Below are positions 62,072 through 62,770 of a stretch of DNA of 64,000 nt, piece after piece. The notes beneath the pieces are model-generated. The model had not been told where the DNA came from. It was given only the letters and a program-made list of their open reading frames with translations, and made no database searches. The stretch is from Escherichia coli (GTDB taxonomy: Bacteria > Pseudomonadota > Gammaproteobacteria > Enterobacterales > Enterobacteriaceae), in assembly GCF_003334405.1 (NCBI RefSeq), contig NZ_QOWM01000004.1; one strand, given 5' to 3'. The translations under genes were made by a program, and so were the position numbers. How positions within the stretch are numbered: the stretch's first letter is position 1; every line of letters begins with the position of its first letter.

Positions 62072-62532
62072 TTGTTATGTCTTATCCCACGGTATTTAAT
62101 ATGGTTCATTAGGATGTTTATTTCTTGATTTTGCATATGAGTATATTACCCCCCCCTCAAAAAAATAAATTAATTAAAATGATGGCTTATATAAAATAAA
62201 ATTTAAAGCAAGGAATCTCAATGGATGTTAAACAAAATGAGATTTTGTGAAAGCAATAAATTATTGACTTCGTTTTAGATTTGTTTAGCTATAATGTTAT
62301 ACATTCAAATGACTGAACATCCTGTAATTAAAACATAGCCTTTATGCTACTTTGTGCCAATTTGCTAAACATTATGGTTGCCTTTTTATATAACGATAAT
62401 AATGAATATAAGCATGACATGAGAATAAGGTTTCAATTTTTGAGTTATATAGGAATGATTTAACCTGTTCCTGGCTAAAATACATATAACCGGATGATGA
62501 CTAAACCAAAATACATGTGCGTTAAGTATTGA

Positions 62533-62561
62533 AACGGACGTGTGGCACGGCCGTTGTTTTT
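62533..62561 (+). terminator. terminator-like hairpin, diverged duplicate of the icd terminator
   Basis: AACGGACGTG-tgg-CACGGCCGTT (one mismatch) followed by GTTTTTAT; flanks homologous to 61650-61705. Confidence 0.5.
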
Positions 62562-62770
62562 ATAAATATGTTAACCGTTATAAAATAACGTATCAAAAGT
62601 CAAGTGATCACATTTCAAATATCAAGTTGATAGTATTAGTCTGGTGATTATTTATGGGTGACAATAAAAAGACAGTATTAATCATCCATAGAGATAGTCT
62701 CTGCACTTTTATTTCCATTATGCTAATGCCTTACTGAATTATGAAGCATTTCTTAAGTATCCAACTTTAG

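Follow-up and report, generated by a model that had tools for sequence, protein, structure and literature searches.

Does the AT-rich gap between iraM and ycgX in Escherichia coli hold a small RNA (sRNA) or small-protein gene on the strand opposite to both neighbors, or merely transcription that serves no product of its own? The question is raised by a stretch of 64,000 nucleotides from an E. coli contig (NZ_QOWM01000004.1, assembly GCF_003334405.1; hereafter the window, to which coordinates refer unless K-12 is named). In this window, a first-pass annotation made from the letters alone had proposed an unannotated plus-strand transcript at 62260-62565, with a TTGACT/TATAAT promoter, small open reading frames (ORFs) and an intrinsic terminator hairpin. 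The gap spans 62072-62770 (699 bp) and is identical base for base to that of E. coli K-12 MG1655, the K-12 coordinate being the window coordinate plus 1,149,932. Our analysis indicates that plus-strand transcription does start here and that its product is probably a weak non-coding divergent transcript of the iraM control region, antisense to the small gene ymgK, silenced by H-NS and limited by Rho, rather than the product of a dedicated sRNA or protein gene.

The evidence for transcription comes from published Cappable-seq mapping, which places a primary plus-strand transcription start site (TSS) at 62312 (K-12 1212244; Forrest et al. 2022). This site, TSS_1212244_+, is present in both the wild-type (WT) and the delta-hns TSS lists of that study (reference U00096.3), and it is approximately 20-fold more active without H-NS (log2 fold change (log2FC) of delta-hns over WT = 4.30, -log10 p = 10.5). 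The only other start listed for the gap is 1212124 on the minus strand (window 62192). RNA polymerase binding has also been found in the gap spacer, which was flagged as an H-NS site (Shimada et al. 2014). Regarding termination, an "orphan" Rho-termination region was reported on the plus strand at K-12 1212310 (window 62378), with reads of 45/42 without bicyclomycin (BCM) and 122/293 with it, a Rho score of 2.57 and p = 9.4e-5 (Adams et al. 2021). The plus-strand RNA thus shows more read-through under Rho inhibition, with a Rho call near the threshold, and the position of approximately 62378 is coarse because the method compares 800-nt windows. The ROSE supplement has no entry for this locus. 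If the RNA reached the hairpin proposed as its terminator, it would occupy 62312..62561 (plus strand, mapped 5′ end, approximately 250 nt) and would be antisense to the whole of ymgK. The proposal of a plus-strand transcript within 62260-62565 therefore stands as far as a mapped primary start and a Rho region on the same strand are concerned, but not with regard to the promoter and terminator from which it had been deduced. A second plus-strand TSS, antisense inside ycgX at 62831 (K-12 1212763), is listed in the delta-hns column only with a log2FC of 5.0 (Forrest et al. 2022) and is a further H-NS-silenced antisense initiation in the neighborhood. Intervals at K-12 1212405-1212487 and nearby, which the same study lists as H-NS-bound, AT-rich island or horizontally acquired, were left out of account.

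Which promoter drives the start at 62312? The motifs named in the first-pass annotation, TTGACT at 62264-62269 and, after a 20-bp spacer, an exact TATAAT at 62290-62295, are all located where it had placed them, and the latter is the sole TATAAT on either strand of the gap. As a promoter, however, the pair is not tenable: the mapped TSS lies 17 nt past the TATAAT, the spacer is too long, and the hexamers vary among alleles. TTGACT is restricted to the K-12-type allele and reads TTCACT in all eight other-type alleles examined, TATAAT becomes TAAAAT in five of the eight, and an exact match to the 40-mer at the pair was found in 1,352 of the 3,904 genomes that carry the iraM islet described below. 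A promoter scan of 61000-64000 detected 14 sigma-70-like sites compared to 8.8 +/- 3.3 in shuffles, and did not list the proposed pair because its spacer falls outside 16-18 bp. The two motifs are no more than chance in DNA of 29% G+C. Use of the TATAAT as a bidirectional or extended -10 of the mapped start was also considered and ruled out by its 17-nt distance to the TSS.

We infer that the promoter in use is instead the hexamer TACATT (62300..62305, plus strand), whose last T is at -7 relative to the TSS, together with a PhoP-box-like direct repeat, CGTTTT-AGATT-TGTTTA (62271..62287, plus strand), located 12 nt upstream of it. The repeat, which is in direct orientation, agrees with (C/T/G)GTTTA-N5-(C/T/G)GTTTA at 11 of 12 positions, and the complete unit has the layout CGTTTTAGATTTGTTTA-12 nt-TACATT-6 nt-+1, with A as the start base; the TATAAT sits inside the 12-nt spacer. 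Both the hexamer and the repeat are invariant in the 10 E. coli sequences examined, and the segment from box to -10 has the lowest non-coding diversity (pi = 0.025, compared to 0.092 in the iraM 5′ untranslated region (UTR)). PhoP promoters of "Architecture I" have a direct repeat box 12 nt upstream of the -10 (Zwir et al. 2012), and the plus unit displays this geometry, with a -10 correctly placed for the TSS. Its spacing is also that of the phoP promoter in this window (55762-55796, minus strand, box 55780-55796: GGTTTATTTAATGTTTA, 12 nt, CATAAT).

A second unit with the same box-12 nt-(-10) layout is oriented back-to-back with the first and points toward iraM. It occupies 62192..62234 on the minus strand and consists of a box-like TGTTTAACATCCATTGA (62234..62218), 12 nt, a -10 TAAATT (62205..62200) and the mapped start at 62192 (TSS_1212124_-; log2FC 5.63 in delta-hns, Forrest et al. 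2022), which is 121 nt upstream of the iraM ATG. Box and -10 are conserved in all alleles among the 10 E. coli sequences, and this unit is the probable iraM promoter. When all arrangements matching at least 10 of 12 box positions were collected, three were found in the 64-kb window; two of them are in the gap, one per strand, and each coincides with a mapped TSS. In simulated gaps matched for composition, the mean number of such arrangements was 0.13, at no particular position, and by this simulation the 12-nt spacing of Architecture I would fall exactly on a mapped TSS by chance at approximately 3e-4 per TSS. The gene iraM (61748..62071, minus strand), whose control region hosts the plus-strand promoter, encodes a PhoP-regulated anti-adaptor; its mRNA is PhoP-dependent. 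On the basis of geometry and conservation, the plus-strand start is plausibly co-activated by PhoP along with iraM. Through IraM, the stability of RpoS is coupled to PhoPQ (low Mg2+, acid), and too much IraM costs fitness, which is why the wiring of its promoter matters.

Two observations concern iraM expression itself. In isolate NRZ94505 (L010, 447-1215), the insertion sequence (IS) IS1 is located directly after the iraM -10, at the iraM transcription start; it cuts iraM off from its promoter and leaves the plus-strand unit intact. In addition, a homopolymer run in the iraM 5′ UTR (62149-62166, CCCCCCCC-T-CAAAAAAA), within the most variable part of the gap, differs in both length and sequence among alleles.

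How the transcript ends is a separate question. A hairpin followed by a T-run is indeed found at 62533-62561 in plus orientation, but its role as the end of a dedicated transcript is not supported, given its origin as a displaced icd terminator copy, an A.G mismatch in its stem and the 3′-end data. The segment 62511-62562 (plus strand; hairpin 62533-62555 plus T-run) aligns, with some divergence, to the icd terminator at 61655-61697 (plus strand), the functional first copy, which lies directly after icd (60395..61645, plus strand, followed in the window by iraM), was recovered in a terminator scan and folds at -16.3 kcal/mol (z = -4.6). The fold of the relic is weaker (-10.2 kcal/mol, z = -1.06), and 31 of 200 shuffles are at least as stable. 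One stem pair is altered on both sides in the K-12 lineage, resulting in the A.G mismatch; other defects are present in O26-type and enterotoxigenic E. coli (ETEC)-type alleles, and several alleles have a perfect stem of 9 bp (-15.3 kcal/mol), the hairpin being intact in alleles like that of strain CFSAN061770. Such varied stem damage across alleles is the pattern expected of relaxed constraint. Among the curated Term-seq 3′ ends of Adams et al. (2021), none was located at the hairpin (K-12 12124xx-12125xx) in LB at an optical density (OD) of 0.4, LB at OD 2.0 or M63.

Strains that lack iraM clarify where this hairpin comes from. In BEN2908 and AVS0790, the sequence that starts at window 62555 and leads into ymgL and ycgX comes immediately after an icd 3′ fragment with its terminator, and from 62555 onward the window shows no difference from the post-terminator sequence of BEN2908. 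The hairpin at 62533-62561 is thus the ancestral icd terminator, displaced by insertion of an islet, and the insertion comprises the approximately 860 bp that separate the two copies, with iraM, the iraM control region and ymgK. A global MAFFT alignment had also hinted at icd coding similarity upstream of the relic; this was ruled out by a shuffle test, in which the local alignment score of 16 was below the shuffle mean of 17.4 and was equaled or exceeded by 860 of 1000 shuffles, leaving no sign of an icd coding remnant in that segment.

The islet with iraM and ymgK, flanked by the two icd terminator copies (61646-62562; K-12 1211578-1212494), is carried by 3,904 of 5,426 complete E. coli genomes and is missing from B2-type strains. 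Its origin may be sought among phages. In phage 21 and the lambda-like phages that use icd as their integration site, the phage-borne icd 3′ end extends past the terminator to window 61698, which explains how the terminator can be duplicated by integration. IraM belongs to the phage family phrog_4407 (E = 4e-51), YcgX likewise falls in a phage protein family, and homologs of iraM were found in Stx2 phages as well as in E. albertii, where the context is prophage-like. Taken together, these relationships support a phage-derived insert. The G+C content of the gap is 29% (29-31% across the acquired stretch), whereas that of icd is 50%. It was previously reported that iraM is located in the e14 prophage (PMC4045071). 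This prophage lies between icd and iraM in K-12 but not in this window, which shows icd, terminator and iraM without e14, and the e14 feature of K-12 stops before icdC. To judge by this comparison, iraM is not part of e14 but occupies a separate, older islet at the hotspot of integration in icd, which corrects the previous assignment.

One scan of genome contigs with IraM recovered E. albertii only, plus a contaminant contig. The latter, a 558-bp low-coverage contig assigned to Oceanospirillum linum ATCC 11336 (L013), matches the N-terminal part of E. coli iraM at 100% identity and is almost certainly E. coli contamination. What the homologs in E. albertii and Stx2 phages have in common with the islet is limited to the iraM coding sequence, without the two-promoter arrangement, and for that reason they are uninformative on the gap; the transcript segment was not found outside E. 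coli in comparisons that included both. Matches on plasmids were set aside as they look like chromosomal fragments or misfiled records. Further rearrangements were noticed around the same site. In the iraM-less strain 2022H048 (L005, 1939-3872), IS200C separates the icd terminator from ymgL, which is itself interrupted by ISEc39. Insertions of several kinds appear to have a hotspot in the icd 3′ flank. Moreover, the last 174 bp of icd (61472-61645) are unusually diverse between strains (pi = 0.079, compared to 0.015 for ycgX), consistent with repeated replacement by phage-borne copies.

Could the plus-strand RNA encode a protein? The gap is not unannotated in the first place: RefSeq and K-12 annotations already contain two minus-strand small-protein genes, ymgK (b4738; 62328..62372, 14 amino acids (aa)) and ymgL (b4739; 62608..62718, 36 aa), both of whose products were validated by chromosomal epitope tagging (VanOrsdel et al. 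2018); ycgX (62771..63175, minus strand) forms the other border of the gap. The two plus-strand ORFs are as described, one of 39 codons without a Shine-Dalgarno (SD) sequence (62344..62463), which starts 32 nt after the mapped TSS, and one of 9 codons (62221..62250) with AAGGA 6 nt upstream of its start. As genes, however, each is hit by start loss, frameshift or stops in many alleles. In the longer ORF, ATG is replaced by ATA in two alleles, a +1 G frameshift is present in five and TGA or TAA stops in two, and its changes comprise 12 nonsynonymous or nonsense versus 3 synonymous, so that the synonymous-nonsynonymous comparison suggested as a check revealed an unconserved reading frame. No PHROG family matched this ORF; although it is at times automatically annotated as "hypothetical protein", the 39-aa peptide is not named anywhere or mentioned in the literature searched. 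The start of the ORF is overlapped by ymgK on the opposite strand, and the four substitutions in the overlap across seven alleles are all synonymous for ymgK on the minus strand. The 9-codon ORF has ATA instead of ATG in six of the nine alleles compared and AAGAA instead of AAGGA in three, overlaps the minus-strand box of the iraM promoter, and is outside the transcript because it lies upstream of the mapped TSS. Both ORFs are best regarded as chance reading frames.

The annotated small genes showed some variation of their own. In strain DETEC-S792 (L014, 419-463), the ymgK start is ATA rather than ATG, and the Prokaryotic Genome Annotation Pipeline (PGAP) still gives a YmgK protein accession. 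For ymgL, diversity by codon position is 0.058, 0.059 and 0.076, with 12 nonsynonymous versus 6 synonymous changes; purifying selection is not apparent in this set of alleles, though the protein was detected by tagging.

Analyses at the RNA level did not reveal a structured product either. A search of 61400-63400 against Rfam with E values up to 10 gave no hit at the gathering score, only sub-threshold noise from eukaryotic snoRNAs and leaders. The 251-nt plus-strand RNA has no excess structure relative to shuffles (z = +0.58), and folding of 62312-62562 on both strands gave no signal. The diversity of the RNA body (pi = 0.043) is comparable to that of third codon positions in iraM (0.050) and ycgX (0.034), suggesting that the RNA body evolves about neutrally.

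Under the explanation that we favor, RNA polymerase starts at 62312, divergent from the iraM promoter, and the RNA would cross ymgK in antisense through AT-rich phage-derived DNA. H-NS holds this RNA approximately 20-fold down and Rho would limit it as it heads toward a vestigial icd terminator that was not built for it, while the geometry and conservation of the box suggest that PhoP may fire this promoter together with that of iraM. The transcript shows derepression without H-NS, antisense overlap of ymgK and a location in AT-rich acquired DNA of patchy distribution. Several points weigh against this explanation. The Rho call is only just above its threshold, its 800-nt windows take in e14/icdC sequence in K-12 that is absent from this window, and the 39-codon ORF is open in the two commonest allele classes. 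With regard to PhoP, the plus box departs from the strict consensus at two positions, a level of agreement that is common (24 cases in the window versus 13.8 expected); the coincidence of box and TSS was spotted post hoc, the dependence of the plus-strand start on PhoP is deduced from motif and position, and conservation of the box could be explained by iraM regulation alone.

The last of these points leads to the possibility that 62312 is pure noise, a spurious -10-driven start in AT-rich foreign DNA in which PhoP takes no part and the box serves iraM only. A G+C content of 29%, 20-fold derepression without H-NS as in hundreds of such TSSs, an A/T-rich TATAAT just upstream of the -10 and the imperfect box all fit this possibility, which we consider conceivable but doubtful, given that the exact 12-nt spacing on a mapped TSS is rarely produced by chance, that the start is seen in WT too, and that -10 and box are invariant while their flanks vary. 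At the other extreme, PhoP might fire both divergent promoters when Mg2+ is low or conditions are acid, and the plus-strand RNA, cis-antisense or divergent, would have a function: it would pair with ymgK transcripts reading toward iraM, or its transcription would help evict H-NS from the iraM promoter, in either case adjusting IraM and, through it, RpoS. A pair of back-to-back Architecture-I-like units that coincide with mapped TSSs and are invariant across alleles, an RNA that covers all of ymgK, strong H-NS repression of both TSSs and the PhoP dependence of iraM would agree with such a function. However, an RNA body that changes at approximately the synonymous rate without a structure signal, iraM homologs in E. 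albertii and Stx2 phages that do without the arrangement, and low expression in WT make it rather unlikely. A more specific version, a bidirectional PhoP switch whose two Architecture-I promoters produce iraM leftward and a functional non-coding RNA (or its transcription) rightward, seems to us quite improbable. If it were true, the plus RNA could regulate ymgK, and read-through transcripts entering iraM, by an antisense mechanism, or help clear H-NS, which would add an RNA layer to the connector from Mg2+ and acid through IraM to RpoS, and the reused icd terminator would provide the 3′ end in strains with an intact hairpin.

The two kinds of dedicated gene first suggested for this locus fare worse. 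A trans-acting sRNA of approximately 250 nt, extending from the plus promoter to an intrinsic terminator at 62533-62561, could claim its own mapped TSS, a hairpin with a U-run approximately 220 nt downstream, and the perfect hairpin (-15.3 kcal/mol) of several alleles. Considering that no Term-seq 3′ end was detected at the hairpin in three growth conditions, that the hairpin derives from icd and has decayed in alleles of the K-12, O26 and ETEC types, and that the RNA shows no Rfam match at threshold, a fold z of +0.58, near-neutral divergence and a segment not found outside E. coli, such an sRNA is very unlikely. An mRNA for a lineage-restricted hydrophobic small protein of 39 aa is the least probable of all, scarcely credible in spite of an ORF that begins 32 nt past the TSS, is open in the K-12-type and O26-type alleles and receives occasional automatic calls: there is no SD sequence, the frame is broken by start loss, frameshift or stops in five of nine alleles, nonsynonymous or nonsense changes outnumber synonymous ones by 12 to 3, the C-terminus is variable, neither a family match nor a literature mention was found, and the synonymous pattern where the two frames overlap is that of ymgK, on the opposite strand.

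Favoring a weak non-coding divergent transcript removes a tempting sRNA or small-protein call and places this RNA among the H-NS-silenced, Rho-limited transcripts of acquired DNA. Such transcripts are numerous and well described, and the start at 62312 was already present, unremarked, in a published table. The analysis further provides a promoter model for both strands, comprising two box-12 nt-(-10) units on mapped starts, and this bidirectional PhoP-box architecture is the most testable new element. If the plus promoter is responsive to PhoP, it would represent a compact case of a regulator box, either acquired with foreign DNA or evolved on it, that drives divergent transcription.

Rho reportedly terminates spurious or antisense transcripts. 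H-NS-silenced transcripts of both types are known from acquired AT-rich DNA (Singh et al. 2014; Forrest et al. 2022), and the plus-strand RNA resembles the transcripts held down by H-NS and Rho in its AT-rich phage-derived setting, its approximately 20-fold derepression in delta-hns, a Rho region on the same strand, the lack of a conserved ORF or structure, and its antisense orientation to annotated genes. Unlike typical spurious intragenic starts, it is also used in WT, is conserved, and lies at the canonical distance from an activator box. The second comparison is with icdC (b4519), the icd 3′ end displaced by e14 in K-12, and with the phage 21 att site in icd. In both icdC and the iraM islet, a second icd 3′ copy lies beyond a phage-type insert and the chromosomal flank continues exactly as in insert-free strains, but here only approximately 50 bp (the terminator) are left, without an icd coding remnant, and the insert has shrunk to approximately 860 bp. 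The iraM islet predates the e14/icdC layer and is nested inside it.

As in the Architecture I promoters of phoP, mgtA, slyB, yrbL and pmrD (Zwir et al. 2012), a direct repeat of the (C/T/G)GTTTA-N5-(T/G)GTTTA type takes the place of a -35 in the plus unit, 12 nt before the -10. The unit differs in its first half-site, CGTTTT (A to T at position 6), in its putative link to PhoP, and in its product, which would be a non-coding antisense RNA instead of an mRNA. A further parallel is with divergent PhoP pairs such as pagC/pagD of Salmonella and the divergently overlapping promoters reported by Yamamoto et al. (2002), where two opposed PhoP-box promoters likewise share one control region; in the iraM-ycgX gap, where the pair is recognized by its sequence, one of the two partners would give rise only to a non-coding antisense RNA.

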